A DNA stretch of 64,000 nt from an uncultured Pseudomonadota bacterium (GCA_963774325.1 CAVZEF010000006.1:1214003-1278002), one strand, 5' to 3'. Shown: positions 4,319 through 20,800, numbered from the stretch's first letter. Translations and numbers: made by a program. The notes: generated by a model from the sequence alone, not told the origin.

Positions 4319-4405
4319 TGTCGACCTCTGGATAGAACCTGGAGCCTGCACCGCTCATGATCCGGTCGAACGTCTTGCGGCTACCCAGCCACCCCGTAGA
4401 GCGCA

Positions 4406-4567
4406 TCAGCGTACTCTGCCGCGGTCCTCGACGCGGACCACTCCTGCCCGTTTCAGCTCGCGAACATGCCGCACCATCTCCGTCATCGGGATGCGCTTGG
4501 ACCCGAAGGACCGGACGAGAGTGTCGTCGACATCTACATACGCGACCACTTGCCCCGTGTCGGTCAT
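4406..4567 (-). CDS. Small hypothetical protein (54 aa) with a HAD-motif-I-like DVDDT. It may be a fragment.
   Basis: ATG overlaps the upstream stop (ATGA) at 4564-4567, suggesting translational coupling with the membrane protein. Local GC is lower. Confidence 0.3.
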   Translation of the reverse strand: MTDTGQVVAYVDVDDTLVRSFGSKRIPMTEMVRHVRELKRAGVVRVEDRGRVR

Positions 4568-4947
4568 CGCAGCTCCACCTGCTGCGCGGTCGCTGCCGAA
4601 GATGCTTCGATGTACACGGCGTACTTGCGACGAAGCCTCCAACCAAAGATCATCCAACCGAACCAGATCGCCGCGGCGAGGGCGTAAGTCACGGGCGCAG
4701 GCTTCTCGCCGTACAAGCCGAGTGCCTCGAGGCCGAAATAGAGTGGGAAGATCGGAGCCGTCGTCCAGAACAGGAACGATGCCGCATACGGCGACTTTCG
4801 CCGATACAGGACAAAAAGCACCGCCGATTCAACGGTGGCAGACAGGCTCAGAACGCGAATATTGCCGCGGCTCATCTCGTAGATGGTTGTGGCGCAGTTC
4901 AGCACCAGAAGTGTTGGACACAAGCGCGACAAGGGATTGTTGTTCAT
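4564..4947 (-). CDS. Hypothetical integral membrane protein (3-4 predicted TM helices)
   Basis: ORF 4564..4947 has hydrophobic stretches (LFVLY, FLFWTTAPIFPLYFGL, ALAAAIWFGWMIFGW). It sits in a low-GC pocket. Confidence 0.45.
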   Translation of the reverse strand: MNNNPLSRLCPTLLVLNCATTIYEMSRGNIRVLSLSATVESAVLFVLYRRKSPYAASFLFWTTAPIFPLYFGLEALGLYGEKPAPVTYALAAAIWFGWMIFGWRLRRKYAVYIEASSAATAQQVELR

Positions 4948-5117
4948 GGCTCTGGTTGTGGCGACGAGTCCGGCCGACGATACCTCGGCTCAGCGGCGCG
5001 GCGAAGCCCCCTCCCCTGCGACGGCGGGTTGGTCGGCCTTCCGCGCCGCCTCCTCCAGCGCCTGGACCACCTTCGTCCGTTTGGATTCTCGGCACAGATC
5101 GGCGGGGAGGCGCTCAC

Positions 5118-7055
5118 TCAGAGCACGGCGCTGTCCAGGATGTGATTGATCGCCATCTGCAGGCCGTCGAGCGTCTGCGTCGTCCCCGCCGGCCAGTCGC
5201 GCGTGTTGATGACGTAGGCCCAGTCGACGTCGTCGCCGCGGGACTGCGCCCAGGACGATGCGCCCGGCGTGCTGCCGGCGCGCGCGCCCGGAGCGCGCCG
5301 CCCGTTGCCCCAGACCGCGTGGCGGTGGATGAACTGCACCATCGCCATCGCCGACGCGCCCGTGCCGTCGTTGGGCGCGCCGACTTCGTTGATCTCGCCG
5401 TCGCCGCCGTACACCGACGGCACCAGCAGCGGCGACGTCAGCTCGAGAGGGCTCAGACCCAGCCCCTGGTCCTCGGCGATCGCCTCGTCGTCGGTGCGCC
5501 CCGCCGGTCGCGTCGAGATCACGCGCACCTGGGTGATGTCGGCGGGCGCCAGCAACGTCTGGCGCACATAGGTGAAGTACGGCGTGCCGGTCACGCGCTC
5601 GACCGCCGCGCCCGCCAGCAGGTAGCCGTAGTTCGAGTACTGGCTCTTTGCCCCCGGCGCGAAGTCGAGCGGGCGCCCGTACATGTACTTCGCGATCTCC
5701 AGCTTGGTCACTGGTTGCCCGAGCCCCAGCGCGAGCGCGATCGTGCGCATGCTGTACGTGGGATCGAAGCCCGATCCCGTGGGCGAATCGTCGTAGCCCG
5801 CCGTGTGGTCGAGGAGCTGCTGCACGGTGATGGTGTCGCTGCGCGGGTCGGCCGGGCGCGAAAACCCGAGCAGCGGATAGACCGCCGTCGTCGGTTTGAG
5901 CTTGCCCGCGTCGTAGAGCGATTGCACCGCCGCCGCCAGGAACATCTTGCTGCAGCTCGCGAGCAAGAACCGATCGCTCACCTTGGTCACGCGATAGCCC
6001 GGCTCCGCCCACGTGTACGCGCGCGCGAGCTCGAGCGCGCCGTTCTTGCCGACGGCGACCTGGGCGGCGCGCACGCCGTTCTCTTTCATGAAGGCTTGCA
6101 TCGCGTGGTCGAGCGCCGCCAGCGCCGGCACCGGCGTCCCCTCGACCGTCCAGTGGCGCGGCGACGGGACGTCCTGCTTCGCGAAGATCGCGGCGTAGCG
6201 CGTGTCGCCGCCCGCCCCGCCGCCCTGCACGCAGATCGGGTAGAAACCCTGCGCGCTCTGGATGTCGAATTCCTTCTGGTAGTCCGCCGCGGTCAGGCCG
6301 TGCCGCGCGACCCACGGGCCCACGACGTCGTCCTTGAACACCGAGCAGTAGTTCTGATCTCCGGAGAGCGCGACGTAGGCCAGCCGATACCCGGCGAGCC
6401 GATGGCCGGGCAGCTGCGTCTCAGCGTCGAACGTCGTCTGGTAGGCGGCCGCGGTGTCGGCCGCGTGCACGTGCCATTTGACGTAGTTGGGGTTCGCCTG
6501 CCAGACCGCCGCGTAGCGCTGGTCGCCGGCGGTGCCGTAGATCGCCACCGAGCGCAGCACCAGGCGCGCATCCGCCGCCGCGCGGTTCTGATACTGGAAG
6601 GTTCCGACCTGGGTCGGCAGCCCCGACGTCAATCCATGTCGCGCCACCCAGGGGCCCGCGACCCCTTGCTCGAACACCGCCGCGAAGATCGCATTGGCGC
6701 TGGCGCCGGTCGCCGACACCAGCACCGGCGCGTAGCCTTGCGCCGTGTGCGTGTTGAAGAAGGTCTGATACCCCGCGGCGTCGACGCCGTGAACGGCGAC
6801 CCACGCCGGCCCCGAGCGCACGACCCATACCGCCGCGTAGCGCGCATCCCCCGGCTCCCCGTAGACGCTGAGCGAGATCATTCGATAGCCCAGCCCGGAC
6901 AGCTTGTTGAAGCTCGCCTGATGCTCCGCCCCGGTCACCCCGTGATACGCCTGCACCGCCATCGTCGCCCCTCCCTCGAATCCCAACGCCACGCCCGTCG
7001 CGAGCCCGGCGCGGCAGGACACTAAACGAGGAAGGTACGCCGATCTTCCCGGCAA
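5118..7055 (-). CDS. Beta-lactamase-family serine hydrolase (SxxK motif SCSK) with four N-terminal ~55-aa repeats
   Basis: The C-terminal half reads ...DRFLLASCSKMFLAAAVQSLYDAG... (class C / EstB-like). The N-terminus has four repeats of the form YAAVW...PWVARHG...YQ..F...GY.P. Confidence 0.75.
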   Translation of the reverse strand: MPGRSAYLPRLVSCRAGLATGVALGFEGGATMAVQAYHGVTGAEHQASFNKLSGLGYRMISLSVYGEPGDARYAAVWVVRSGPAWVAVHGVDAAGYQTFFNTHTAQGYAPVLVSATGASANAIFAAVFEQGVAGPWVARHGLTSGLPTQVGTFQYQNRAAADARLVLRSVAIYGTAGDQRYAAVWQANPNYVKWHVHAADTAAAYQTTFDAETQLPGHRLAGYRLAYVALSGDQNYCSVFKDDVVGPWVARHGLTAADYQKEFDIQSAQGFYPICVQGGGAGGDTRYAAIFAKQDVPSPRHWTVEGTPVPALAALDHAMQAFMKENGVRAAQVAVGKNGALELARAYTWAEPGYRVTKVSDRFLLASCSKMFLAAAVQSLYDAGKLKPTTAVYPLLGFSRPADPRSDTITVQQLLDHTAGYDDSPTGSGFDPTYSMRTIALALGLGQPVTKLEIAKYMYGRPLDFAPGAKSQYSNYGYLLAGAAVERVTGTPYFTYVRQTLLAPADITQVRVISTRPAGRTDDEAIAEDQGLGLSPLELTSPLLVPSVYGGDGEINEVGAPNDGTGASAMAMVQFIHRHAVWGNGRRAPGARAGSTPGASSWAQSRGDDVDWAYVINTRDWPAGTTQTLDGLQMAINHILDSAVL

Positions 7056-7086
7056 GGCGCGAAGAACTCTCGCGCTTTGACCAGGC

Positions 7087-7908
7087 TCATGGAACGGGGA
7101 GAACGTCGATGACGACGCCGGCCTTCGAGGAGAGCAGCGTCACGGGATCGAGAACGATGACCTCCAGTTTGGCTGGACCTGGATCCGTTGCGCGGAACAC
7201 GACCGACGACTTCCGGTAGTCGATCGGGTCGAGCATCGGCCAGCTCGCCGGCCGAACATCGATCGTAGGGTTGTGAGCCAGGACGTCCTTCGGAACGTGA
7301 ACCTGCACTTCGAACGTGTCGCCCACCCGGACGGGACTCTTCGAGACCTCGATGCTCGCAATCCTGGGTACACGAGACGCAATATCGGGAACGAGGTGGG
7401 CGGCCAGAAAGGACTGAATGCGCCGGGCGAGCGGCATCACCTTGGGACCCCGGCGATGATTGTTCAGCGACACACACACATTTCGAAAGACCCAAAGAAT
7501 GTCGCCACCGTCGTGAGACTCGAACTCGACCGCCAGCTCGCCCACCTTCTCGAGCGCAAGAGCCATGTGATGCTTCTCGGTCGTCGTGTTCATGGCATTT
7601 TCGATCAGCCGCGCCCGGGCACCGGCGGGTCCGGTTCCCAAGACGTAAATCTCGACAGTGATCGAGTCGGCGCGACGCTGCCAGTCCCAGGTGGCCAACC
7701 CGACTCCCGACTCGAAAGGAAGGGCGTCGTGCTGGAGCAGGCGGAACCCCTGTAGATCCTCTGACAGGACTGACGTCAGAAGGCGCCAGTCGGCGAGAAC
7801 CCCGTCAGTCGCATCGAGCCCGCCCAGGGCGTCGATACCAACCAGCGCCTTGAAGTCCGTGACCTTCGCATCGGGGTCATACTCGTTCGAATCGTCACCT
7901 TCAGTCAT
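7087..7908 (-). CDS. Hypothetical protein (273 aa), downstream partner of the transglutaminase-like protein
   Basis: Start MTEGDDSNEY sits at an ATGA overlap (7905-7908) with the upstream gene stop. GC is ~60% against ~70% in the flanks. No recognisable motif. Confidence 0.55.
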   Translation of the reverse strand: MTEGDDSNEYDPDAKVTDFKALVGIDALGGLDATDGVLADWRLLTSVLSEDLQGFRLLQHDALPFESGVGLATWDWQRRADSITVEIYVLGTGPAGARARLIENAMNTTTEKHHMALALEKVGELAVEFESHDGGDILWVFRNVCVSLNNHRRGPKVMPLARRIQSFLAAHLVPDIASRVPRIASIEVSKSPVRVGDTFEVQVHVPKDVLAHNPTIDVRPASWPMLDPIDYRKSSVVFRATDPGPAKLEVIVLDPVTLLSSKAGVVIDVLPVP

Positions 7909-9068
7909 TTGACGACGAGAACTCCAATCTCCGGTTGCACGTCCTCCGGACGCCCGGGTCGACACCAGCGCTCGTACAGGGATGGCGTATCATCGATGCT
8001 GTCGGCCAGGTACTCTGGAACCGTTTCGGTCGCGAGGTGAGGCTTCGCACACGCATCGACAGCCTTCGCACCGTAGGTGACGGCAAATGCGTGATTGCCG
8101 AACGCGGTTCGCCTCACTGAATCGGGCGGCACCAACCTCAACGATTCATCGTCCCTGAAAAATGGATTGTTACACAGCCCAACACCCACCAGATTCGTGG
8201 GTCGAATGTACCCAAAAGGCTTGAGAAACAGCCACGCGGAAACAACGCCGACGGCGCCCGCCAGTGCTTGAACGGCCGCAGCCTGGTCGTAGCAGTTACA
8301 GACAGCGCTCCGCCTCAACATGTAGAGCCCCAGATTGAAAGTACCGCCACGAGCGTTCACGCCGTATTTAGCGGCACCACTATCTGTCTCGTAACGGAGC
8401 CCGTGCCCGCTGTGGCAGTAGGCGGCGATGGTCGCCATCACCGCCCATCGATTGTTCCCGGTCACACCGACATGCCCGAAAAGAAATCGGAGCACCTCGG
8501 CCCATACGCCGTACTTCCGGTACGGCACACTCGGGATGGCCAGGATGAAGTAGATCTCGGCGAACGTCGTGCCCAGGCTGGCGCTGATCGGAGTTGCCTC
8601 CACGTCCAGGCGCCACGCGATGCGTCCGCGGCAAGCGCGCAGCTCCTCGGGGGGATTCGCAATGCGGGCGCGGACCGTGTGTTCGCCGGCGCTCGAGGGG
8701 CAAGTGCCCTCGATCGACACGCCCGAAAGCGTGCCGACCAGGCGCGCCTCTCCGCTGACGTTCCGGGACTTGGTGATCCTCAACTTCACCTCGACGGCGT
8801 AGGGACCGCCGAGGCCTCCAGCGAGGAACACCGCCGGGCGCTTCGAATAAGGGTCGACCGGCAGGTGCAATAGCCTGGCGATCCGATTCCAGACGTCCTC
8901 GATCGCGTGCTCTTTCCCTATTTCCCAGTGCGGCCCCTCGACGGTCGTCCGACCGCGACTGACCTTGATCCCTGACTTGAAGGTGATCGACACCAGCTCG
9001 GCGGCGAGCTCCGCGTCCGGCGGCGGCGTCGCCGCCGGCACGACCGCGACGGGCTCACCGACCTGCAC
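7905..9068 (-). CDS. Hypothetical protein with a putative transglutaminase-like / papain-fold Cys-His-Asp core
   Basis: The C-terminal region reads ...SAVCNCYDQAAAVQALAGAVGV...(60 aa)...GNHAFAVTYGAKAVDAC. This resembles the TGc consensus C..FA...L....GIP...HAW.EVY...W..D. GC is low. Confidence 0.5.
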   Translation of the reverse strand: MQVGEPVAVVPAATPPPDAELAAELVSITFKSGIKVSRGRTTVEGPHWEIGKEHAIEDVWNRIARLLHLPVDPYSKRPAVFLAGGLGGPYAVEVKLRITKSRNVSGEARLVGTLSGVSIEGTCPSSAGEHTVRARIANPPEELRACRGRIAWRLDVEATPISASLGTTFAEIYFILAIPSVPYRKYGVWAEVLRFLFGHVGVTGNNRWAVMATIAAYCHSGHGLRYETDSGAAKYGVNARGGTFNLGLYMLRRSAVCNCYDQAAAVQALAGAVGVVSAWLFLKPFGYIRPTNLVGVGLCNNPFFRDDESLRLVPPDSVRRTAFGNHAFAVTYGAKAVDACAKPHLATETVPEYLADSIDDTPSLYERWCRPGRPEDVQPEIGVLVVK

Positions 9069-9147: not shown

Positions 9148-11865
9148 CTAGTACGTATCGTGGATCGACGTCGCCTTCACGCGCGGCACCGGGCCGGTCC
9201 ACTCGACGGTGACGGCCTCGCCGGGGAGCAGATCGAAGTAGTTGTCCGAGAACATCTCCTCGCGCCGCGACGGCGCCGGATCGGCGTCGAGGTGCACCGC
9301 GCGCGCCAGGCGCCGCGCCGCGACCCGCACCGACGCACCCACGGTCGCGCCCGCGGGGTGCGGCGTCGACCGTGACCGACAGCTCGGGATCGGGCAGCAC
9401 CAGGTCCTTGGTCTTCTCGAAGTAGTAGAAGCCGCGCGCCAGCCGTTCGCCGTCCGGCGACGCCAGCTCCGCCACCAGCACGACGTGCGCGGGATTGGCG
9501 CCCTGCAACGCCGCCGCGCGCGGCCAGCTCGACAGCACCGCGCTCGCGTTCGGCGCCAGCGTGACGTCGCTGGCCTTGCGCCACAGCTCGCGCCCGTCGA
9601 AGTCGACCAGCCGCAACGTCAGCTGCGCGCGCGTCGGCGCGCGCAGATCGGAGACGCCGTAAACGCGAATCTCGCCGCTCTCCTCGACGGGGCTGAGCAG
9701 GATCGGCGCGAAGAAGCGCCGCGCGGCGTAGTGCAGCGCCTTCCAGCGGCCGAAGTAGTCGATGCCGGACCACGACGCCACCGGCCAGCAGTCGTCGAGC
9801 TGCCAGTACAGGCTGCCCTGGTTGTACGGCATGCGCCGGCGGTGCGCCTCGGCGGCGTAGCTGATCACCGTCGCCTGCAGCACCTGGCTCATGTACAGGA
9901 ACGACGCGAAGTCCTTCGGCTTGCGAAAGTCGCGGTCCATGTACGTGCGCACCAGCGGATTGCCGCGCGGGTGGCGCTGGTGCGACGAGCATGACCGGCG
10001 ACTCGATGTCGTAGTCGGCCGGCGTCGCGTAGCGCGCGACGCTGGCGAGCTCGGGGAACGACTGAAAGCCGTACTCGCTCATGAAGCGCGACGTGTTCGG
10101 GCCGTAGTCGCTGTACGGCGCCTCGGCGTGCCAGACGCCCCAGTAGTGCATGTCGCCGTAGCCGACCTTGTTGGCTGCGATCTTGTCGTCGTTGGCGCTG
10201 GGTGAGCTGCGCGTGTAAAAGCGGCCGGGGTCTTCCTCGGCGACGACCTTGGGCAGCACGTCGTAAAAGACGCGCTTGTACGCGCGCCAGATCTTGTCCT
10301 GCGCCGCCTTGTCGAGGTGGAACTTCTCCTGCCAGCCCCACCCCTTCCAGGCGACCTCCATCTCGTTGTTGCCGGCCCACAGCGCCAGGCTGGGATGGTT
10401 GCGCAGGCGGCGCACGTTCTCGATCGCCTCCTGGCGGACGTTCTCGATGAACGGCGCGTCGCCGGGATACATGCTGCAGGCGAACATGAAGTCCTGCCAC
10501 ACCAGGATCCCCAGCTCGTCGCAGAGGTCGTAGAAGCGATCGTCCTCGTAGATGCCGCCGCCCCAGACGCGCAGCATGTTCATGTGCGCGTCGGCGGCCG
10601 ACTGCACCAGGAAGCGATAGCGCTCCGGCGTCACGCGATCGAGGAAGCTGTCCGACGGGATGTAGTTCGCGCCCTTCATGAACACGGGCGCGCCGTTGAC
10701 CTCGACGGTGAAGCTCTTGCCGTCCTTGTCGCCGCGATGGACGACCTCGAGCGTGCGCAGGCCGACGCGCACCGAGCGCGTGTCGCGCACGATGCCGGCG
10801 ACCGACAGCTCGGCCGCGATGGTGTAAAGACGCGCCGGGCCGAGCCCGTTCGGCCACCAGCGCTCGGGCCGATCGATCGCGAGGTCGACCTCGATCGCGT
10901 TGCGGCCCGCCTTCAGCGTCGCGCCCGCCTCGGCCAGCGCGCGCGCCGCCCGCCAGCGACAGGCGCAGCTGCGCGCGGCCCGCGTGCGACGCCATCACGG
11001 TGGTGGTCACGCGCAGCGTCGCGCGCGCATCGGTGAGCGACGTCTGCAACGCGTGCACGTCGTCGATGCGCGCCGCGTCCCAGGCCTCGAGCCGCACCGG
11101 GCGCCAGACGCCGCTGGTCACGAAGCGCGGGCCCCAGTCCCAGCCGTAGTGATACGGCGCCTTGCGCGTGTACATGCTCACCATCGGCGTGGCCTGGTCG
11201 TTGCTGGCCGGAAGGATGTAGCCGAGCCGCTCGTACGCCGGCATCACGTGCTCGATCGGTGAGCGAAACCGAACCAGCAGCGTGTTCTCCCCCTTGTGCA
11301 GGTGCGATTTCACGGCGACGCGCCACGACCGGAACATGTTGTCGGCGCTCAGCACCGACGCGCCGTTGACGAAGACCTCGGCGTAGGTGTCGAGGCCCAG
11401 GAAGTCGAGCTCGATCCGCTCGCGCGCGAGGAGCGCGTCGTCAGCGACGAACGTCGTGCGGTACTCCCAGTCTTCCTTGTCGATCCACTGCTGGTCTTTC
11501 TCGTTCGTGCCGACGAACGGGTCGGCGATCTTGTGGTTCGCGAGCAGATCGGTGTGCACGCAGCCCGGCACCGTCGCCGGCAGCCAGCCGCTGGCGTCGG
11601 CGTGCGCGTGGGCGTCGGCGTGCGCGTGCGCGTGGGCGTCGACATCGGCGGCCGGTTTCCCCCCGTGCGGCGCCTGGCGGAACGTCCAGGGCCCGTGCAG
11701 CTCGGTCGAAAGGCGCGCCTCGGAGGTCGCCGCCGCCGCCGCCGCGCTGGCAGGGAACGCCGCTCCGACGTCACCCGGGGCGCCCAAGCTCATCCCGACC
11801 ATGACACCAGCCGCCAGGAGCCGCGTCGTCGGTGGAACCCCCGATCGCTCCATCGTCTGCGACAC
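9148..11865 (-). pseudogene. Glycoside hydrolase family 2 beta-mannosidase, interrupted by at least 4 frameshifts
   Basis: Four ORF pieces (9889..11865, 9177..10790, 9107..9952, 9148..9342) together reconstruct one beta-mannosidase. Residues seen include WGGGIYEDD, NEMEVAW, VRTYMDRDFRKPKDF and a C-terminus ...VTVEWTGPVPRVKATSIHDTY. Each piece decays into R/G-rich nonsense at a frame switch. Confidence 0.7.
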
Positions 11866-11992
11866 GCGGCGGAGAATGGCAGAAGGCGCCGCGGTGATCC
11901 ATCGGACAGATCAGCCTGGCAACGGCCCCCGCGTGCGCATTCTATTTGACGACCGCCGACCGAGGGCGCTAGCCTCAGCCTGTCTTCGTCAC

Positions 11993-12064
11993 GGGCGTTT
12001 AACTCAGCGGAAGAGTGCGACCTTCACACGGTCGAAGTCGCAGGTTCAATCCCTGCAACGCCCA
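11993..12064 (+). tRNA. tRNA-Val (anticodon CAC)
   Basis: The sequence folds as a cloverleaf: acceptor GGGCGTT/AACGCCC; D stem ACTC/GAGT; anticodon stem CGACC/GGTCG with loop TTCACAC; T arm GCAGG-TTCAATC-CCTGC; discriminator A. No CCA is encoded. Confidence 0.8.
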
Positions 12065-12070
12065 CAAAAA

Positions 12071-12104
12071 GGCGGCGGAATCGCAGATTCCTGCCGCCTT
12101 TTTC
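12071..12104 (+). terminator. Rho-independent terminator immediately 3' of tRNA-Val
   Basis: Stem GGCGGCGGAATC...GATTCCTGCCGCC (one bulge) followed by TTTTT. Confidence 0.65.
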
Positions 12105-12109
12105 TTGGC

Positions 12110-12481
12110 TGGGTACCGAATGTGCCTGTGCCTGTGGTGCTGACGCCCGCCGAGGTCGTGACCCTCCTGGCGGGCTTGACTGGGCCCACCGCCCTCGTGG
12201 GTTCCTTTACGGCGCCGGCCTGCGCCTGCTCGAGGCGCTTCGATTCCGCGTCAAGGACGTCGATTCCGAGCGGCGCGAGATCATTGTCCGGCGCGGAAGG
12301 GCCAGAAGGATCGGCACACCGAGCCGCCGTCGCCGCCAGAATTCCCAAGCACCTCACGCCCCATACGCTCCGCCACTCCTTCGCGACGCACCTCTTGGAA
12401 TCCGGCTACGACATCCGCACGATCCAAGAGCTCCTCGGTCACAAGGACGTCAGCACCACGATGATCTACCCCACGTCTTGA
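12110..12481 (+). pseudogene. Tyrosine recombinase (IntI/XerD-like integrase) remnant. The N-terminal half is missing, and it has an internal frameshift or deletion and a truncated C-terminus.
   Basis: The frame ending at 12481 reads ...[43 protein letters not shown]. An upstream frame reads ..[30 protein letters not shown](K)GQKDRHT... with one missing base. The R..H..Y C-terminal catalytic motifs are present but the gene is clearly not intact. Confidence 0.6.
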
Positions 12482-12704
12482 ATCGAGGCGCCGGTGGCAT
12501 TCGCAGCCCCCTCGATCGCTGACCAGCCTGCGACCTCTCGGCATACCTCTCGCGGCCCTGGCCGCGGCCCTTATCGAATCATTCAGCGAGGCCCTGCCTC
12601 GCAAGCCCGCGAGATCGCGCTGGAGCGGTGCTCGAGGCGACCTGGACATGCTGTGGCCAAGGATTATCCAACTGTGGAGAATACGAGTTATCCGGACGGG
12701 CGGC

Positions 12705-13037
12705 ATGCGATACGAAGTGCTTTCGGGCGATACCGAGATCGGCTGGTCCGAACTCGAGTTCGGTGACCCTCCAATGGGCGTCGCCCACGGTCGATTCCAT
12801 CCGTCCAAGTTCTATCGTTCCTCTAGCCACGCAGGCCCCAACAGAGACCTGCGGGCGCGTCCGGAGGGAAGCGGGGAGTTCTTCCAGCCCAGCGGCGGCG
12901 TGTTCATCGAGGATCTATCTGCCGACTTTGGACCCGAGGGAGTCGAGGTCAGCGTTCTCGGCGTAGACGGCGCGACCTACCTTCGGTTCTTCCCCCACCA
13001 CGTAAAGACCTACGAGGATCAGTTCCGCTCCAAGTGA
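12705..13037 (+). CDS. Cassette ORF 1: small hypothetical protein, immunity-protein-like
   Basis: Translation MRYEVLSGDTEIGWSELEFGDPPMGVAHGRF...YLRFFPHHVKTYEDQFRSK. It is preceded by a GTTATCC box at ~12687 and followed by an attC-like site. Confidence 0.5.
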   Translation: MRYEVLSGDTEIGWSELEFGDPPMGVAHGRFHPSKFYRSSSHAGPNRDLRARPEGSGEFFQPSGGVFIEDLSADFGPEGVEVSVLGVDGATYLRFFPHHVKTYEDQFRSK

Positions 13038-13042
13038 TCGCC

Positions 13043-13098
13043 GGCTAACATGGCGTTGCAGCGGTCGATCATCGCCGCTGAACACCAAGACGTTCGAC
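13043..13098 (+). repeat. attC-like site 1 (56 nt)
   Basis: Layout: GGCTAAC, 3 nt, GCGTTGCAGCGG, spacer, CCGCTGAACAC, spacer, GTTCGAC. The arms pair with one unpaired G. The GTT box lies 19 nt before the next ATG. Confidence 0.55.
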
Positions 13099-13116
13099 GG
13101 ACCGGGAAGTGCCTCA

Positions 13117-13578
13117 ATGAGGACCGTGGAGGAATTGACCGCCGCTCTCGCTTTGGCGCCTTTAGCGCACCGCGACGCCAGACGCCGCGGTCCCGCTGAT
13201 CCGACATCCTTCACTGATTTGGAGTCACGCTTTCAAGTCAAACTCCCTTTCGACGTTCGCGCCTTCTATTCCAGGATGGACGGGACCGACCTGCTGGACG
13301 CCGAGCACGGCCTGACGACACTTTGGCCACTGGATCGCTGGACTCGCCTCGACCAAGAGGCCCCGCAGTACGCCACGGATGCCCCCGCCGGCGCCATCGT
13401 CCTCGCGGACTATTCACTCTGGTGCTGGGCGTATGCGGCCGAATTCGAACCTGGGACTGAGCGGACGATCGTACACATTGTCGGAGGCCCTGGCGGCGTG
13501 CCAATCGCGGAGACCTTCACAGAATTCCTTGAGTTAGTGGTGACAAACAGTCCGCGCCTCTTTGGGGAGGCTGGCTAA
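13117..13578 (+). CDS. Cassette ORF 2: SMI1/KNR4 (SUKH-1) family immunity-like protein
   Basis: Translation ...FDVRAFYSRMDGTDLLD...TTLWPLDRW...IVLADYSLWCWAYAAEF...IVHIVGGPGGVPIAETFTEFLELVV matches SUKH hallmarks. Confidence 0.6.
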   Translation: MRTVEELTAALALAPLAHRDARRRGPADPTSFTDLESRFQVKLPFDVRAFYSRMDGTDLLDAEHGLTTLWPLDRWTRLDQEAPQYATDAPAGAIVLADYSLWCWAYAAEFEPGTERTIVHIVGGPGGVPIAETFTEFLELVVTNSPRLFGEAG

Positions 13579-13635
13579 CCGCGCGTTGCAGAGGACGGCG
13601 GTTCGCGCCGCTGCTGAACGCCAGTATCGTTGGGC
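13573..13635 (+). repeat. attC-like site 2 (63 nt)
   Basis: The stop codon is embedded in GGCTAAC. GCGTT-G-CAG pairs with CTG-AACGC with a bulged G. Then CAGTATC and GTTGGGC, 7 nt before ATG 13643. Confidence 0.6.
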
Positions 13636-13642
13636 AGACGAG

Positions 13643-13927
13643 ATGTCCTTGGGAGCTGGGCCTAAGGTCGAAGAATGGCGGCGGAGTTCTGCCGCCCTTC
13701 CGATCGAATGGAAGGGAAACCTTGGAGACGACTGCACGGCCACGTGGGCAGGCCTCACGTTGCGAGCCGAATCCATGAAGCGGGGCTCCTGGTGGTGGGC
13801 GGTCAACGATGATCGCAGCGGCGAGACGATCGATTCTTCGAACGAGTCCACCGAGCGGTTCACGAATGGAAAGCAGGCGCGCGCAGCTGCCGAGCGTGTC
13901 GCGAGGAAGTGGCTCGCGGGGCTGTAG
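13643..13927 (+). CDS. Cassette ORF 3: small hypothetical protein (94 aa), immunity-like
   Basis: Translation MSLGAGPKVEEWRRSSAALPIEWKGN...GSWWWAVNDDRSGETIDSSNESTERF... Start taken at the ATG just after the GTTGGGC box. The track ORF 13562 start lies inside the attC site. Confidence 0.5.
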   Translation: MSLGAGPKVEEWRRSSAALPIEWKGNLGDDCTATWAGLTLRAESMKRGSWWWAVNDDRSGETIDSSNESTERFTNGKQARAAAERVARKWLAGL

Positions 13928-13932
13928 CTGCC

Positions 13933-14020
13933 CAACAACGCGTTGCAGCTGTCGGCCGCCCTCGGTCGGCGCTTCGCGCCTCCCTCTAGCGTTTGCAGCT
14001 CAACGCCAGTAACGTTCGAC
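13933..14020 (+). repeat. attC-like site 3 (88 nt, with a duplicated GCGTTGCAG module)
   Basis: Elements in order: CAACAAC; GCGTTGCAGCTG; GCGTTTGCAGCTCAACGC; AACGCCAGTAAC; GTTCGAC, 10 nt before ATG 14031. Confidence 0.5.
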
Positions 14021-14030
14021 GGACGGCGAG

Positions 14031-14435
14031 ATGCGGTTCTCAGGAGTAGTGGCCTTTGTCGTACTCTTGGGGTGCGCCGGACCGGGAACGGTGACGGTCG
14101 GACGGAGTCTCGAGGGAGTCCAGTTCAGTTTCTCTCGCGGAGGCGCGGAGGGACTGGAGTTGATCGGGGTAGAGGTATTCGAATGGAATAGCGGTGTCCG
14201 GGGTAGCACCGTGTGCACGCTCGGTTTGAAGGCCGTTGTCCAGACGCATCCTTCGACTCTGGTTCGCTGGGTCTATGGCAACGCGCCTCCCGACGGTGAA
14301 TACCGGGTAAGCGGCTGCGTCGCTCTCGTCCCAGGCCGCGACTACGGTGTCGCAGGGTTTCGATACGACCACCGCATCGTATTGACCCGGTTCCGAGTCG
14401 TGAAAGACGGCTCAGTGATCGGAGACGCGAAGTAG
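14031..14435 (+). CDS. Cassette ORF 4: small lipoprotein (lipobox LLGC)
   Basis: Translation MRFSGVVAFVVLLGCAGPG... gives signal peptide plus Cys. It is a beta-rich 134-aa protein. Confidence 0.55.
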   Translation: MRFSGVVAFVVLLGCAGPGTVTVGRSLEGVQFSFSRGGAEGLELIGVEVFEWNSGVRGSTVCTLGLKAVVQTHPSTLVRWVYGNAPPDGEYRVSGCVALVPGRDYGVAGFRYDHRIVLTRFRVVKDGSVIGDAK

Positions 14436-14469
14436 GAGCAGCTTGTGTCCCCTCCGCGTCTCGCCTGCC

Positions 14470-14542
14470 CGTGGCGCCGTCCATCCCGGCGTTGAACCTG
14501 CCGGCGCTTGCGCGCCGCAGGTTAACGCCAGTAACGTTAGAC
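14470..14542 (+). repeat. attC-like site 4
   Basis: GGCGTT-G-AACCTGC pairs with GCAGGTT-AACGCC (one unpaired G). Then AGTAAC and GTTAGAC, 13 nt before GTG 14556. Confidence 0.5.
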
Positions 14543-14555
14543 TGAGAAGCGAACT

Positions 14556-14857
14556 GTGGCCCACTATCGAGTCTTTCTGCGCGGCGCGAACTTCCTAGTG
14601 AACGTCGACGCGAGGCGAGGCCGACGCGGATCGGCTTCTTCACGACGCGCTTCGTTCAGGCGAATAGTCGCGACGGAGCGGAGCTTCTGGCGGTAGATCT
14701 GATCCGAAGCGATAAATGGCTCAGAGGTGCCGTGTCCAACTCCCCATCGGACCCTCCGCGGATCTTCGCCGAGGAAATCGAGGTGGTCGAAGCCGACCAT
14801 GATCCTGGCTTAGGGTCCGGCTTCAGCCTCTTCCCGATGGACGCCTCCGACGCCTGA
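14556..14857 (+). CDS. Cassette ORF 5: hypothetical protein, disrupted by one frameshift near 14605
   Basis: Frame a gives VAHYRVFLRGANFLVNVD. It then shifts into the frame reading EARPTRIGFFTTRFVQANSRDGAELLAVDLIRSDKW...FPMDASDA*. GC3 favours the plus strand over the antisense ORF 14564..14800. Confidence 0.3.
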
Positions 14858-14869
14858 GCCGTGATCCCC

Positions 14870-14912
14870 GTCTAACCCCCCCGGTCCAACCCGGCGTTGC
14901 CGTCGGGCAAAG
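14870..14912 (+). repeat. Degenerate attC-like site 5
   Basis: GTCTAAC lies 13 nt after the stop codon, followed by GGCGTTGCCGTCGGGCAAAGC, a weak palindrome. Confidence 0.25.
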
Positions 14913-15082
14913 CATGACGATAGGCGTGCCGCGACCGCAGAAATCTGAGGGTCGTCGGGCGACAGCACCCCCATGCATTCGTTGGAAGCCCAGGAGAAGG
15001 GGGGACAATGAACAGTTCTGCGTTATCCTGGGCGTGGTCTTGGCGGGCACGAAAAATGCTCCGAGGGAGAGCCGGGGGATAG

Positions 15083-16183
15083 ATGAAGCCAGAACATCGC
15101 GATCGGACCAGGGCAACGATGGCTGTCGCTCTGGGGCTCGCGCTCTTCGCCGGCTGCGGCGACCAGGCGGGCGACAACGGAGTCGCTCCCGGAACAACCT
15201 CCAGCCCGGCTGGGGCAATTGCCATCGCGTCGGACGCGACCGGACAAAAGCTCGTGGTGGTGGGTGGTGGCATCTGGACATCGATCAACGGCGGCAAGAC
15301 GTGGATCGAGCGGGCGCCGTCCGGGCCGGCGCACATTCAGCAATGGACGTCGGTCGCGTCCGACGCGACGGGGACGAACCTCGTTGCGGTGGTCAATGGT
15401 TTTTATGATCGGCCCGATTCGAATCCGGCAGAGTTCAGCGGGGACGTTTGGGGTTCGGCCGACAGCGGCGCGACCTGGATCGACCGGACCGCGTCCAGCC
15501 CCGCCCATGGCCAAGCGTGGAGGTCCATCGCGTCGGATGCGTCGGGAACGAAGCTGGTCGCCGTGACGGCCGGCTTGGGTGCCTTTGGACCCGGCGCCAT
15601 CTGGACGTCGACCGACGCTGGCTCGACCTGGACCAACCGGACCGGGGCCAATGCTGCGATGAGCGGACAAAGTTGGTCGTCGGTCGCGTCAGATGCGACC
15701 GGGCAGAACCTGGTCGCCGCGGGCAGGGGCTCTGGCGTCTGGGCTTCGCTCGATGGCGGTATGACCTGGACGGACCGCACGCCTGCCGACCCCAAGTTCC
15801 AAGCTAGTTTCGGGGACCAGGTGCAAGGCTGGTCGTCCGTCGCATCCGACGCGACCGGGACCAAGCTCGTCTCGGCCGTCGACGTGGGGGACGTCTGGAC
15901 GTCGACCAACGGTGGCGTCACGTGGAGCGATACCGGCCCTGCGACGTCCTGGCAGGTTTGGTTTTCGGTGGCGTCGGATTCCACGGGGACGAACCTGGTT
16001 GCGGTCGATGGGCTCGTGAGCGGCGACAACGGGGACGTCTGGACGTCGACCAACGGCGGCCTGACCTGGACTGACCAGACTACCGGGAACCAAGCGGCAG
16101 GCGGGCCCTGGGACGCGGTCGCGTTGAACGCGGCCGGGGATCACGTGGTTGCCATCGGACGCGGCGCGATCTGGCGACAGTAA
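15083..16183 (+). CDS. Cassette ORF 6: lipoprotein with ~8 BNR/Asp-box (sialidase-like SxDxGxTW) repeats
   Basis: Translation MKPEHRDRTRATMAVALGLALFAGCG has a lipobox. Repeated motifs include SxNGGKTW, SADSGATW, STDAGSTW, SLDGGMTW, STNGGVTW and STNGGLTW. Confidence 0.75.
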   Translation: MKPEHRDRTRATMAVALGLALFAGCGDQAGDNGVAPGTTSSPAGAIAIASDATGQKLVVVGGGIWTSINGGKTWIERAPSGPAHIQQWTSVASDATGTNLVAVVNGFYDRPDSNPAEFSGDVWGSADSGATWIDRTASSPAHGQAWRSIASDASGTKLVAVTAGLGAFGPGAIWTSTDAGSTWTNRTGANAAMSGQSWSSVASDATGQNLVAAGRGSGVWASLDGGMTWTDRTPADPKFQASFGDQVQGWSSVASDATGTKLVSAVDVGDVWTSTNGGVTWSDTGPATSWQVWFSVASDSTGTNLVAVDGLVSGDNGDVWTSTNGGLTWTDQTTGNQAAGGPWDAVALNAAGDHVVAIGRGAIWRQ

Positions 16184-16373
16184 CCAAGCAGCGTGAATCA
16201 GCAAGTGCAGGGTTGCGCCCTGCCGCTGATCGGCAGATCGCTGGACGGACAAGGGAGCCAAGGTCGCCGAGTGTCCTTATCGAAATCCGGCGCGTGATTC
16301 TCGCCGCAGAAGAATCACACGTCATGGAGGCGATTCACTCCCCGCTACGAGAAGCCTCACGATATCCGGCGGC

Positions 16374-16769
16374 GTGCTTGCAGGTCCCGGGGCTCTGGCC
16401 TTGGCGAGCTCTGATTGGTACTTCGGATTCGCCGATCATCGGGCGCCACACGACGCGTGGCTGCTATCAGCCTCATTCGAAGAGACGGGGACTGGCACGC
16501 GTAGCGAGGAGCGACACGTCTCGTTGCGAGTGCGTCTGCTCGGCGCCTACCATGACTTTGAGCTGGAGTTCTTCTATCCGAAGGTCTTCTCGTACACGTT
16601 CCAGGCGGGTGCCCTGAACTCCGGCCACGGCGACTGGCGGTACGACGAGTTTCGCCTGAGCGACGACGGACACCTCGTACACGAGATCCAGTGGTGCCGA
16701 GAGGCACACGAACCGACGTGGCTGATTCACGCGGACGATGTCGTCTTCACGTCGCGCGCCGCCGGCTAA
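16374..16769 (+). CDS. Cassette ORF 7: hypothetical immunity-like protein. The N-terminus may extend to ATG 16322 with a frameshift.
   Basis: Translation ...SDWYFGFADHRAPHDAWLLSASFEE...HGDWRYDEFRLSDDGHLVHEIQWCREAHEPTWLIHADDVVF. The stop TAA is embedded in GGCTAAC. Confidence 0.45.
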   Translation: MLAGPGALALASSDWYFGFADHRAPHDAWLLSASFEETGTGTRSEERHVSLRVRLLGAYHDFELEFFYPKVFSYTFQAGALNSGHGDWRYDEFRLSDDGHLVHEIQWCREAHEPTWLIHADDVVFTSRAAG

Positions 16770-16838
16770 CCGCCGTTGCAGCGGGCGGAGATCGCACCGC
16801 GACTTCTATCCGACGCCGAGTACAAGGCGGCGTTTAGC
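16764..16838 (+). repeat. attC-like site 7 (last in the array)
   Basis: GGCTAAC-C-GCCGTTGCAGCGGG ... GGCGGCGTTTAGCGC, with a GTTTAGC box. Confidence 0.4.
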
Positions 16839-16929
16839 GCTCGCTCTTCGCCCGCTCCTTTTCAGCCATTGACGCCCCGGTGTTCCCCGAGGAATTAGCC
16901 GGCCGTGTTACCTTAAGCGCCACTTATCG

Positions 16930-17814
16930 ATGCAGGTCGCGCGGCTGGAGGGCTTTTACTGGGTGGCGCGCACCGGCGGCTATGCAGCGGCGGCGCGCGC
17001 GTTCCCCTACCCGCTGACCCAGCCCGCGGTGTTTCAGCAGGTGCGCAAGCTGGAGAACGAGCTGGGCGTTCGCCTGTTCGAGCGGGTGGGCAAGGCCGAG
17101 ATGCGACTGACCGCCGCGGGCCGACAGCTCTACGATCACGCCGCGCCGTTCTTCGAACGGTTGCCGGCCGTGGAGCGCGCGCTCAAGGCGGCGACGCCCG
17201 CGCGCGAGCTGCGCCTGGCGGCCGAGGCGCTGATCCTGCAGCAGGTGTTGCCGGGCTGGATCCGCCGCCTGCAGCGCCGCGAGCCCGATCTGCGCGTCGA
17301 CGTGCGCGAGCTGGCGGCGCCCGATCCAGAGGTGGTGCGCAACGGCGAGGTCGATCTGGCGGTCGCCTACTTCCCGAACGCCCTCCCCGCGGGTCTGGCC
17401 AGCCGGCCGGTCGCGACGCTGAGCTCGTTCCTGGTCTTGCCGGCGGGCGGGTTGCTCGCGCGGCGGCCGCGCGTCACGCTGCGCGACCTGGCGAGCGAGA
17501 CCTTCGTGACCTACAACCCGGGCACCATCCACCACGAGCTGCAGCGCCGCGCGCTGGCCCGCAGCGGCGCCGCGCCCGCGCGGCTCGTCTCGGCGAGCAC
17601 GACCGAGGCGATCCTGGGCCTGGTCGCCGTGGGCGTCGGCTGCTCGCTGGTCCCCTCGATCGACGAGGCGCTGCTGCGCCGGCGCGGCGTGGTCACGCGT
17701 CCGTTTGCTCCCGGGCGGGGCCGCTTCCCGGTGCGCGCGGTGTGGCGTGCGACCGGCCCCGCGAACCCAGCCGTCGATCTTGCGCTGGGGGCGCTCGGCG
17801 AGACGAACCGCTGA
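16930..17814 (+). CDS. LysR-family transcriptional regulator
   Basis: The N-terminal HTH reads MQVARLEGFYWVARTGGYAAAARAFPYPLTQPAVFQQVRKLENELGVRLFER, followed by a LysR substrate-binding domain. It is intact. Confidence 0.85.
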   Translation: MQVARLEGFYWVARTGGYAAAARAFPYPLTQPAVFQQVRKLENELGVRLFERVGKAEMRLTAAGRQLYDHAAPFFERLPAVERALKAATPARELRLAAEALILQQVLPGWIRRLQRREPDLRVDVRELAAPDPEVVRNGEVDLAVAYFPNALPAGLASRPVATLSSFLVLPAGGLLARRPRVTLRDLASETFVTYNPGTIHHELQRRALARSGAAPARLVSASTTEAILGLVAVGVGCSLVPSIDEALLRRRGVVTRPFAPGRGRFPVRAVWRATGPANPAVDLALGALGETNR

Positions 17815-17839
17815 AGCGGCGCTGGGGGCCGTCGGCTGA

Positions 17840-20800
17840 TCACTTCGTGGCCAGGTCCGGCACGGCCGACGCCGCAATCGTGAGGTGCGGCTCCCGGACG
17901 GGCTGCCTCCGCAGGCCCACGCCGCGAACCACCACGTAGAAGACCGGCGTCAGCACCAGACCGAAGAACGTCACGCCGAGCATGCCGGCGAAGACGGCGA
18001 CGCCCATGGCTTGCCGGATCTCGGCGCCGGCGCCCGTCGACATGACCAGCGGGATGACGCCCATGATGAAGGCGAACGACGTCATCAGGATCGGGCGCAG
18101 GCGGATGCGCGCGGCCTCGAGCGCCGCCTCGACGGGCGATCGGCCCTGATGCTCGAGCTCGCGCGCGAACTCGACGATCAGGATGGCGTTCTTGCAGGCG
18201 AGGCCGATCAGCACCAGGAAGCCGACCTGGGTGAAGACGTTGTTGTCCCCGCCGGTCAGCCAGATGCCGGCGGCCGCGCACAGCAGGCACATCGGCACGA
18301 TCAGGATCACCGCGACCGGCAGCGACCAGCTCTCGTACTGCGCGGCCAGCACCAGGAACACCAGCAGCACGCACAGCAGGAAGACCAGCCCGGTGGTGTT
18401 GCCCGCCAGCTGCTGCTGGTACGTGAGCTCGGTCCACTCGAAGCCGACGCCGTTGGGCAGGGTCTCGCGCGCGAGGCGCTCCATCACCGCGACCGCCTGC
18501 GCCCGAGCTGACGCCGGGCGCCGGCCCGCCGTTGATGTCGGCGGCGAGATAGGCGTTGTAGTGCAGTCTGCTGGTCGGGACCGCGCGACTGACTTCACGC
18601 GCAGCACCGATCCGAGCGGCACCATCGCGCCATCGGCGTTGCGCACCTTGAGCTGGGCGATGTTCTCGGCGGTGGCGCGGAATGTGCGCGTCGGCCTGCG
18701 ACGATCACCTGATAGGTGCGGCCGAAGCGGTTGAAGTCGTTGACGTAGACGCGAGCCCGAGGTAGATCTGCATCGTGCGGAAGACCTCGGTGAGCGACAG
18801 GCCCGCCTGCTTGACCTTCTCGCGGTCGACGTCGACGTCGAGCTGCGGCACGTCGATGCGACTAGCTCGAGAACAGGCCGGCCAGCTCCGGGGTCTGGTA
18901 CGCGCGCGACCGATCAGCGCTTGTGTCGCCTTGGCCAGCTCCTCCTCGCCGAGCCCGGCGCGATCCTCGATCTCCATCTTGAACCCACCGACGGTGCCGA
19001 GGCCCATGACCGGCGGTGGCGGGAAGACGGCGACGAACGCGTCCTGGATGCCCGCGAACTTCTGGTTCAGCGCCCCGGCGATCGCCGGGCCGTAGAGCTC
19101 CTTGGTCCGCCGCTCTTCGAACGGCGTCAGCGCAAAGAAGATGATGCCGGCGTTGGACGCGTTGACGAATCCGTTGATCGACAGGCCCGGGAACTGCACG
19201 GCGCCCGACGATGCCCGGCTGCTTGAGGCCGATCTCCGCCATCTTGCGCACCACGTCGTCGTGCGATCCAGCGTGGCGCGCGTCCGGGAGCTGGGCGAAG
19301 GCGACCAGGTAGCGCTTGTCCTGCGTCGGCACGAAGCCGCTCGGCAGGCGCGAGAACCCGAACGCCGTCACCGCCAGCAGCCCGCCGTAGACCAGCGAGC
19401 GCCACACCGCGCCGCCGGACGATCCGGCCCGCCGCGCGTCCGTAGGCATTCGGACGCGCGCACGAACAGGCGGTTGAAGCGGCGGAACAACCAGCCGAAC
19501 AGGAAGTCGAGCACGACGCGTCAGGCGGTCCGGCGTGGCGCCGTGCGAGCGCAGCAGGATCGCGCTCAGCGCCGGCGACAGCGTCAGCGAGTTGATGGCC
19601 GAGATCACCGTCGAGAACGCGATGGTCAGCGCGAACTGCCGGTAGAACTGTCCGGTCAGGCCGCTGACGAACGCCACCGGCACGAACACCGCGCACAGCA
19701 CCAGCGCGATGGCGATGATGGGCCGGCTCACTTCCTCCATCGCCTTGTAGCTGGCCTCGCGCGGCGACAGGCCGGCGGCGATGTTGCGCTCGACGTTCTC
19801 GACCACGACGATGGCGTCGTCGACGACGATGCCGATGGCCAGCACCAGGCCGAACAGCGACAGCGTGTTGATCGAGAAGCCGAACGCCAGCAGGACGGCG
19901 AACGTGCCGACGATCGAGACCGGCACCGCGACCAGCGGGATGATCGAGGCGCGCCAGGTCTGCAGGAACAGCACGACGACGATCACGACCAGCAGGATCG
20001 CCTCGAACAGCGTCTTGGCCACCTCGGCGATACCCTCGCGCACGTTGGTGGTCGGGTCGTAGACGACCTCGTATCCGATGCCCTGGGGGAAGTTGTGCGA
20101 CAGCTGCTCCATGGTCTCGCGCACCGTGCTCGACACCTTGAGCGCGTTCGAGCCCGGCGCCTGGAAGATGGCCATCGCCACCGCGTCCTTGTTGTCGAGC
20201 AGCGAGCGCAACGAGTAGCTGCCCGACCGCCAGCTCGACGCGCGCCACGTCGCCGAGGCGCGTGATCTGGCCGCCGGCGCCGGTCTTGACGACGATGTCG
20301 CGAAACTCGTCCTCGGTGGTCAGCCGCCCGCGCGCGTTGACGGTCAACGTGAAGTCGACCGGCTTGTCCATGGGCATGCCGCCCACCACGCCGGCCGCGA
20401 CCTGAACGTTCTGGTCGCGGATGGCGGCGACGACGTCGCGACGCGGACAGCCCGCGCGCCGCGACCTCGCTCGGGTCGAGCCACACGCGCATGGCGTAGT
20501 CGCCGGCGCCGAAGAGCACCACCTGCCCCACGCCGGGAATGCGAGCCAGAACGTCCTTCACTTGAAGCACGGCGTAGTTGCGCAGGTACACCATGTCGTA
20601 GCGGTTGTCGGGCGAGACCAGGTGCACGACCATCGTGATGTTGGGCGAGCTCTTGACCGTGGTGACGCCGAGCTGCCGCACCTCCTCGGGCAGGCGTGGC
20701 AGCGCCTGGCTGACGCGGTTTTGCACCTGCACCTGCGCGAGATCCGACGTCGGTGCCCACGCGGAAGGTCACGGTCAGCGTGCAGCGCGCCGTCCGACGT

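Follow-up and report, generated by a model that had tools for sequence, protein, structure and literature searches.

An island beside tRNA-Val: very probably a decayed sedentary chromosomal integron in a myxobacterial genome of Polyangia type

What is the island of small, same-strand genes that lies between a tRNA-Val gene and a LysR-family regulator gene in an uncultured Pseudomonadota bacterium (GCA_963774325.1), and is its gene content still open to change? The island is part of a 64,000-nucleotide stretch (CAVZEF010000006.1:1214003-1278002; the whole stretch is called the window herein, and positions are counted from its first letter). A first-pass annotation had proposed an integron-like cassette array beside tRNA-Val, and that proposal holds: an integrase (intI) remnant, an attI site and four attC sites matched by an independent model are found there. 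The region ~12106-16880 is very probably what is left of a sedentary chromosomal integron, one of the co-oriented "inverted integrase" type, in a myxobacterial genome of Polyangia type. Its parts follow one another on one strand in the order intI, attI and cassettes, of which four or five are recognisable. By the definitions of IntegronFinder, the region counts as a CALIN (cluster of attC sites lacking integron-integrases) with an adjacent pseudo-intI and a preserved attI.

The attC sites were located with a covariance model built from 83 non-redundant attC-like sites, taken from other genomes only and containing no window sequence, and run with filters off over the whole window. The model returned exactly four significant matches in 64 kb, all on the + strand and each directly after an open reading frame (ORF), the next best match having an E value of 0.37. 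These are S1 at 13043-13098 (56 nt; 58.5 bits, E 3e-13), S2 at 13573-13635 (63 nt; 44.8 bits, E 1.7e-9), S3 at 13930-14020 (91 nt; 28.4 bits, E 5e-5) and S4 at 14479-14542 (64 nt; 45 bits, E 1.5e-9). Such a set of matches is well outside what chance would give. Gaps of 295-475 nt separate successive sites, a same-strand spacing below the 4 kb that defines an integron or CALIN cluster of two or more attC sites. The first-pass annotation had named a model of this kind as a check, and the four matches fall at its coordinates. The boxes it had listed are likewise present, with GGCTAAC at 13043, 13573 and 16764, and GTT boxes at 13092, 13629, 14014 and 14536. Its site lengths of 56-88 nt need correction, S3 being longer, and the module said to follow almost every ORF is complete after four of seven, with relics only after ORF5, ORF6 and ORF7. 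The stop codons of ORF2, ORF6 and ORF7 do lie inside an xxxTAAC box, as had been described for the array; that of ORF1, a TGA at 13035-13037, lies 6 nt before its box.

Sequence patterns drawn from these sites extend the finding to other genomes. In the window, AACGCCAGTAWC occurs in exactly three copies in 64 kb, all on the + strand and inside the island (13617, 14002 and 14524); allowing up to two mismatches gives 13 matches against 4.1 +/- 2.1 in shuffled sequence. Public genomes, one per species, were scanned with the pattern TTGCAGCGG-N(10-40)-CCGCTGAAYRC-N6-GTT, which found at least 119 loci against about 2 expected by chance, by our own estimate. Most of these loci belong to Myxococcota (Polyangia, Haliangiales, Nannocystaceae, Byssovorax cruenta), and some carry other phylum labels. 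At a position that the pattern leaves unspecified, 13 bases upstream, the sites read G-N-C-N-A-A-C, each base of the AAC being present in 88-90% of 146 distinct sites, and their 3′ box reads GTT-[AGC]-G-N-C. Where a locus has both intI and attC, the two are co-oriented in nearly all cases, and the arrays often adjoin intI. Individual loci from other genomes are cited below by L numbers.

The structure assigned to the 83-site alignment comprises an R box, a 2-nt spacer, a 6-bp stem, a 1-nt bulge, a second 6-bp stem, another 1-nt bulge and a tip stem. Covariation agrees with this arrangement: both sides are changed in 199 cells (96 +/- 7 in shuffles), and the paired fraction of cells is 89%, compared with 29-44% when partners are slid by one to three columns. 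The pairs 10/72, 12/70 and 13/69, together with the tip stem, switch among GC, CG, AU and UA. The consensus bottom strand is GNCNAAC - GANCTG - GCGTT-CAGCGG-CGG...CCG-[T]-CCGCTG-[C]-AACGC - CTT - GTTNGNC, with two unpaired bases on the 3′ arm (opposite the AAC), six pairs apart, the outer of which is usually T. Lengths range from 46 to 168 nt, with the variation in the tip. Bottom-strand folds with extrahelical bases had been anticipated for the window and are present, with two unpaired bases 6 bp apart in place of the single unpaired G that had been described. The bottom strand is more stable than the top in 62 of the 83 sites (mean 1.4 kcal/mol) and also in S1, S3 and S4, and the bottom-strand fold scores are z -3.4 for S1 and -5.5 for S4. 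In S4 the inner stem AACCTG/CAGGTT replaces CAGCGG/CCGCTG, a compensated change that keeps the structure.

These features follow the rules established for attC sites, by which the bottom-strand R box recombines within its AAC, the extrahelical bases are found near L″ on the arm facing the AAC, the first and last of them are a 6-bp stem apart with the outer a conserved T, the unpaired spacer and the tip vary, and folding favours the bottom strand over the top (Nivina et al. 2016, PMC5027507). The window sites thus combine AAC and GTT boxes, L boxes, extrahelical bases, a 6-bp stem and a variable tip, the exceptions being S2 and S3, in which the 6-bp stem is imperfect, and S4, in its inverse core. 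S1 also resembles a common 84-nt attC class (ATGGTGTTGCAGCGGTCGATCATCC...GCTCGCCGCTGAACACCA...) with an internal deletion of most of the tip. A separate observation is that GGAC or AGAC very commonly comes straight after the R′ box (GTTNGNC-RGAC), in the window at 13099-13102, 14021-14024 and 12694-12697, and also at cassette starts in L001 and L053. By its sequence, GTTNGNC-RGAC is a conserved cassette-start motif that extends beyond the canonical 7-nt core.

Upstream of the array, the intI pseudogene lies at 12106-12522 on the + strand (stop codon 12520-12522), directly 3′ of tRNA-Val. It was delimited by three-frame translation, tblastn with the L108 IntI, TIGR02249, and alignment with L108 and L053, and its tyrosine-recombinase pieces are spread over three reading frames. 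Numbered on the uninterrupted frame of L108, residues ~136-196 (12140-12317) and 282-348 (12320-12519) are kept. What has been lost is the N-terminal third and ~85 internal codons, those of the IntI-specific domain included, and the reading frame changes at least three times. The best solved-structure match of the stitched remnant is V. cholerae IntI4 (PDB 2a3v; E 9e-33, residues 102-167 and 261-319), followed by a XerC-like protein (E 1e-23). Among NCBIfam families it scores highest on TIGR02249, integron integrase (187 bits, with 108 bits for XerC), though below the cut-off of 265 because so much sequence is missing. Integron integrase is also the annotation of its closest relatives in the databases, one of which comes from a Polyangia bacterium. 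L108 has an open intI frame of the same lineage, with 447 bits on TIGR02249 and the motif LPEALRRKYP, and retains the IntI-specific additional domain that is deleted in the window. A tblastn search with the L108 IntI found no other IntI-like sequence in the 64-kb window. The earlier description of the only integrase as a decayed remnant is therefore borne out and made more specific, the remnant being of integron type. With no N-terminal domain, no IntI-specific domain and a frameshifted sequence, the resident intI is, as judged from its reading frames, dead.

A side observation concerns the homologues of this remnant. All 120 of the 120 best (P0001-P0120) are 135-233 aa long and start near ...AKRP..PVVLT. 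A naturally N-terminally truncated "short IntI" or a programmed frameshift was considered for them and rejected: the upstream DNA of L001/L002, L003 and L004 encodes ordinary N-terminal domains, cut off by differing frameshifts or a stop codon. The 135-233-aa homologues are thus gene calls on broken or badly assembled intI genes, as found in the three cases checked. Broken intI genes, or indel errors in them, seem to be very common among these metagenome-assembled genomes (MAGs), and uninterrupted full-length frames are present in L108, L013, L016, L044 and L052.

Between the integrase remnant and the first cassette lies attI, at 12640-12693 on the + strand. An alignment of eight loci shows it conserved as ...GGATTATCCAACTGTGGAGAATACGAG/TT, the slash marking the crossover. 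The eight loci align up to GAATACGAG/TT (GAG/TT) and diverge immediately afterwards, and BLAST homology of the window to other loci ends at 12689-12698. The crossover is placed between G12687 and T12688 because similarity among the eight loci is lost right after the TT. An attI adjoining intI, with a G/TT crossover, is therefore present.

The cassettes can be delimited from the same principle. Cassettes circularise and are cut and joined at G/TT; the first TTNNNN of a cassette should therefore complement its own inverse core. This was scored over 143 pairs of adjacent sites: on average 3.55 of the 4 variable positions of an inverse core are complementary to the R′ of the site upstream, and in 99 pairs all four are. 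The score is 2.59 against the R′ that a site has in situ and 2.44 +/- 0.06 for shuffled pairings, which reach at most 2.69 over 2000 shuffles. In the window, cassettes 1 to 5 score 3, 2, 4, 3 and 4 of 4, in agreement with this rule. Neither a terminator nor a REP (repetitive extragenic palindrome) would produce such a pattern, and the boundary complementarity therefore argues that the sites are neither.

All five cassettes lie on the + strand. Cassette 1 (12688-13092) consists of ORF1 (12705-13037), which has no family match, and S1; its start, TTATCC, is complementary to GGCTAAC at three of four positions. Cassette 2 (13093-13629) carries ORF2 (13117-13578), an SMI1/KNR4 protein (Pfam PF09346, E 2e-9), and S2. 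Cassette 3 (13630-14014) carries ORF3 (13643-13927) and S3, and its start TTGGGC is the exact complement of GCCCAAC. Cassette 4 (14015-14536) carries ORF4 (14031-14435) and S4. Cassette 5 (14537-14876, with an undefined 3′ end) carries ORF5 (14557-14857), and its TTAGAC exactly complements GTCTAAC (14870-14876). The seven same-strand ORFs that had been described at 12705-16769, from tRNA-Val to LysR, are correctly positioned, but ORF5 is frameshifted and not intact. ORF2 is the only one recognised by Pfam or NCBIfam, ORF6 having weak matches below the cut-offs. Homologues of ORF2 occur in other arrays (L121, L111 and L088); for the other cassettes, none were found in the fetched loci. As an additional observation, an independent 4393-nt Logan contig from run ERR12037367 encodes the exact ORF2 protein, and its gene calls have the same order and similar sizes (ORF1, ORF3, ORF4, a gap at ORF5, ORF6 and ORF7).

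Beyond cassette 5 the array is less regular. ORF6 (15083-16183, + strand) encodes a 366-aa predicted lipoprotein with BNR/sortilin-like repeats (PF15902, E 0.002; NF045728, E 3e-6; both below cut-offs) and is probably cassette 6. It is followed by S6, a probable degraded attC at 16178-16246 (+), in which CAGTAAC holds the ORF6 stop, the L′/R′ half CCGCTGATCGGCAGATCGCTGGAC is consensus-like and GTT has become GCT. ORF7 (16374-16769, + strand; 131 aa, with no Pfam or NCBIfam match) is probably the last cassette gene. Of its attC, S7, there is only the left half, GGCTAAC-CGC-CGTTGCAGCGGGCGG, at 16764-16790 (+), and the missing right half marks S7 as the truncated end of the array. Two longer sites were also tried and rejected. 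A full attC after ORF5 (14870-14985, or from GTCCAAC at 14884) has no L′ partner, significant fold or model match, and a long terminal attC with the 9-bp complement GCCGGCTAA (16759) / TTAGCCGGC (16893) as its R″/R′ pair would include 16880-16929, which is conserved upstream of LysR in relatives where no integron lies at that place.

How such an array would be built and changed is suggested by characterised integrons. An IntI recombines the folded bottom strand of an attC hairpin with attI or with another attC, the cut falling in the AAC, which corresponds to G/TT on the top strand. New promoterless cassettes can therefore enter at attI and can leave as circles. By analogy, an IntI would fold and recombine the bottom strands of the present sites with this attI. 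In cassettes 1-4 the attC remains foldable and of standard architecture, the distal sites being degraded or truncated, and the cassette genes may be expressed. With the resident intI dead, the array can no longer be rearranged by its own integrase, and any later change would depend on an IntI from another part of the genome.

Comparison with relatives shows that arrays of this type are common and that their contents differ. In L001, a locus of a Polyangia MAG that encodes a homologue of the integrase, intI and attI are followed by same-strand small ORFs, each with a very similar repeat. The layout with intI on the cassette strand and attI downstream of the intI stop is found in L001, L013, L016, L044, L046, L052, L087 and L108, and intact co-oriented integrons with the same attI and attC type occur in many Polyangia MAGs. 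Several arrays may be present in one genome: MFD04967.bin.2.10 has L019, L040, L045, L077 and L108, and SMAG_U4931 has four loci. The closest comparison is L053, a locus of a Myxococcales MAG that is syntenic with the window over a glycosidase gene (91% identity), tRNA-Val, the truncated intI and attI. The left flank, truncated intI and attI are common to both at 84-91% identity, and L053 has none of the window ORFs; its own cassettes also follow the boundary rule. Fixed flanks with differing cassettes are thus what is seen, as the first-pass annotation had expected of related genomes. Each of the refuting outcomes named in that annotation was checked in some form, and none went against it.

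This comparison bears directly on whether the array is frozen. The earlier view that it is probably immobile is reasonable with respect to its own integrase, but does not extend to an integrase encoded elsewhere. It is possible, if somewhat doubtful, that cassettes at attI are still inserted or excised in trans by an integron integrase elsewhere in the genome. At the junction between the tRNA-Val terminator and the truncated intI, CTTGGCYGSGTACSGA, 15 of 19 bases are identical between the window and L053, and different internal deletions follow, the L053 remnant keeping residues ~252-348. The N-terminal truncation thus seems older than the split between the two, because the junction is common to both. 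Both also show a precise G/TT junction between attI and different first cassettes, and they have no cassettes in common. Together, the common truncation junction and the different first cassettes argue for at least one IntI-mediated event after the truncation, and related genomes often have several arrays and intact intI genes. Set against this, the 64 kb of genome examined contain no other IntI, the common-junction argument rests on ~19 bases, and the degraded distal attC sites, together with the loss of AAC or GTT from S4 and S6, suggest long inactivity. The arrays of the window and L053 could also in part be different survivors of a larger ancestral array. We therefore propose only tentatively that intI was already truncated in the common ancestor of the window and L053, and that the attI-proximal cassettes have nevertheless been completely replaced since. 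If so, Polyangia genomes with several integrons would routinely service "orphan" platforms of attI and array in trans, through the integrases of other integrons, and such platforms would stay working gene-capture sites long after their own intI had died.

Further observations on the related loci stand apart from this argument. In L001, an IS110-family transposase gene (PF01548/PF02371) at 4390-6230 lies inside an attC, the halves of which are at ~4396-4430 and ~6200-6232; elements of the IS1111-attC group insert into attC sites. The attC class also occurs in MAGs labelled Acidobacteriota (Thermoanaerobaculia, Blastocatellia), Binatia, Rokubacteria, Chloroflexota, Planctomycetota and Cyanobacteria, among them L006, L011, L020, L028, L032, L042, L059, L069, L071, L102 and L119. 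Some of these arrays are long, with more than 15 sites in L059. The spread across phyla reflects either cassette sharing or mis-binned contigs.

The position of the island beside a tRNA gene raises a different explanation, namely that a genomic island or prophage targeting tRNA genes once integrated at tRNA-Val through an ordinary tyrosine integrase and left this remnant, with the small ORFs as cargo. The left neighbour is tRNA-Val(cac) at 11993-12065 on the + strand (ARAGORN; Rfam RF00005, 64 bits), with a hairpin and T-run at ~12070-12103 just 3′ of it. The integrase remnant is immediately 3′ of this gene, and the G+C content of the island, 63-66%, is below the ~70% of the flanks (the ~60% given earlier was too low). 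L001 also has a related integron between partial and intact tRNA-Leu copies. We nevertheless consider this origin very unlikely. A BLAST search of 11961-12110 against the 64-kb window did not turn up the tRNA-Val 3′ end as a direct repeat, either at the far border (~16.8 kb) or elsewhere. The integrase belongs to the IntI lineage and is oriented with its 3′ end, and not its 5′ end, towards the cargo. It is attC sites and a conserved attI that give this cargo its organisation, and Pfam and NCBIfam scans found no phage or conjugation genes.

On the right, the core neighbour, outside the element, is the LysR-family regulator gene at 16930-17814 on the + strand (Pfam HTH_1 and LysR_substrate). Its orthologues in Polyangia MAGs, at 85-93% identity, sit in non-integron contexts, and DNA homology to their loci starts at 16880-16904. 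The right end of the element therefore lies before this point. In L124-L128 the orthologues sit in a different neighbourhood, so that the comparison gives a right-hand homology limit and not an empty site. As for L001, its integron lies between a partial 5′ tRNA-Leu copy (172-215) and an intact tRNA-Leu(tag) (7150-7511 region), with a second tyrosine-integrase fragment just before the intact copy, which suggests that this integron rides on, or was trapped in, a tRNA-Leu island.

The remaining explanation, that the repeats are generic palindromes of the REP or BIME (bacterial interspersed mosaic element) kind, or transcription terminators with a superficial likeness to attC, is extremely improbable: the sites are indeed imperfect palindromes, rich in G+C, that come immediately 3′ of stop codons, GCGTTGCAG by itself shows no enrichment (40 matches in the window with one mismatch allowed, against 33 expected), and S2 and S3 fold no better than shuffled sequence, but the 64 kb hold no model matches outside the island and so none of the dispersal of a REP or BIME, the remaining ~59 kb of the window have no copy of the motif, as the first-pass annotation would require, the sites lie on one strand only, both here and in the same-strand arrays elsewhere (0 of 52 loci with at least two sites have them on both strands; median spacing 579 nt), no T-run follows the hairpins and a scan of the + strand found no terminators, and a REP or terminator would give neither boundary complementarity, nor adjacency to intI and attI, nor an insertion sequence within a site. 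An Rfam scan of the window matched only tRNA, Rfam being without an attC family.

Several points weigh against the integron reading and temper its details. The covariance model is our own build, biased towards one attC sequence class, and not the curated attC_4 model of IntegronFinder. The IntI assignment rests on the flanking conserved parts of the protein, because the family-defining IntI-specific domain is deleted. S2 (z -0.75) and S3 (z -0.48) alone fold no better than shuffled sequence, and the inverse core of S4, GTCCATC, has lost its AAC triplet (ATC). Cassettes 2 and 4 complement their own inverse cores at only two and three of four positions. After ORF5 there is the box GTCTAAC only, with no L boxes or R′, no model match at E <= 10 and no significant fold. 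S6 is a marginal model match (16136-16246; 12.3 bits, E 0.047 in a 2.4-kb search) with a one-base bulge in its fold, and S7 (13.3 bits, E 0.025 in the same size of search) has a poor right half. A crude scan of 11900-17000 found no sigma-70-like promoter on the + strand, although myxobacterial promoters may differ. Finally, the single-base frameshifts in intI and ORF5 may be assembly errors, because core genes in the window are also frameshifted. The two large deletions in intI are not explicable in that way.

The core genes in question flank the island. A GH2 (glycoside hydrolase family 2)/beta-mannosidase-like gene at 9177-11865 (- strand) and an RND (resistance-nodulation-division) efflux transporter gene at 17511-20211 (- strand) are each split into overlapping ORFs, and the glycosidase gene has one extra G relative to L053 at ~10943, within a GCGCGCGC run. 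These broken genes reflect either an error-prone assembly or real pseudogenes, and they weaken every pseudogene call in the window that depends on one single-base frameshift. Further stretches of low G+C content lie upstream, at 4001-5000 and 7001-9000 of the window (0.61-0.63 against ~0.70).

The remnant integron described here adds a clearly documented case of decay to the little-studied Polyangia and Myxococcota. In soil MAGs of these groups a single type of attC and attI is found widely, and one genome often has several arrays. Together, the window and L053 offer a natural test of array activity after the loss of a resident integrase, a question that bears on how integrase-less arrays (CALINs) arise and persist. 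Knowledge of integrons in general is unchanged by the finding. The cassette products comprise one SMI1/KNR4-family protein and one repeat lipoprotein, the rest being without a family match, and no cassette gene has an evident function of special interest. All features of the locus have precedents: integrons, CALINs, intI pseudogenes and same-orientation integrases have already been described, and integrons in Myxococcota are mentioned in surveys (PMC9668308).

Among known systems, sedentary chromosomal integrons such as the V. cholerae superintegron and those of Xanthomonas are alike in their fixed chromosomal position common to relatives, in an attI followed by an array of promoterless cassettes mostly of unassigned function, in homogeneous attC sites, and in a content that differs between relatives. 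In one survey of Xanthomonas, 93% of genomes are reported to harbour integrons (PMC12444791). The present array differs in being small, with four or five recognisable cassettes and ~7 ORFs, and in its integrase, which is truncated both N-terminally and internally. Its distal attC sites are degraded, the last being cut in half, and intI points towards the cassettes rather than away from them. CALINs share the presence of at least two attC sites less than 4 kb apart without a functional intI and, as here, an IntI-like pseudogene may lie within 10 kb; such pseudogenes were found near 15 of 279 CALINs (Cury et al., PMC4889954). In contrast to a typical CALIN, this one has kept attI and the 3′ end of intI, and origin by integrase decay is thus directly visible rather than inferred. 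The "inverted integrase" group has the same layout, with intI on the cassette strand and attI downstream of the intI stop. This same-orientation group has been described and found paraphyletic (Cury et al., PMC4889954). The host here belongs to Polyangia/Myxococcota, and the likeness to the described clade comes from layout and not from IntI phylogeny.

At the level of the recombination site, the attC of class 1 integrons, exemplified by that of aadA7, has the same box order of R″ (xxxxAAC), L″, variable tip, L′ and R′ (GTTxxxx). The two types also share the extra base on the L″ side, the two extrahelical bases a 6-bp stem apart with the outer usually T, and the more stable bottom strand. They differ in the inner extrahelical base of the bottom strand, which is C here and usually G in class 1 sites. 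The central spacer, of 5-6 nt on each arm in class 1 sites, is asymmetric here (~5-7 against 2-3 nt), because an extra 2-3 bp extend the L stem.

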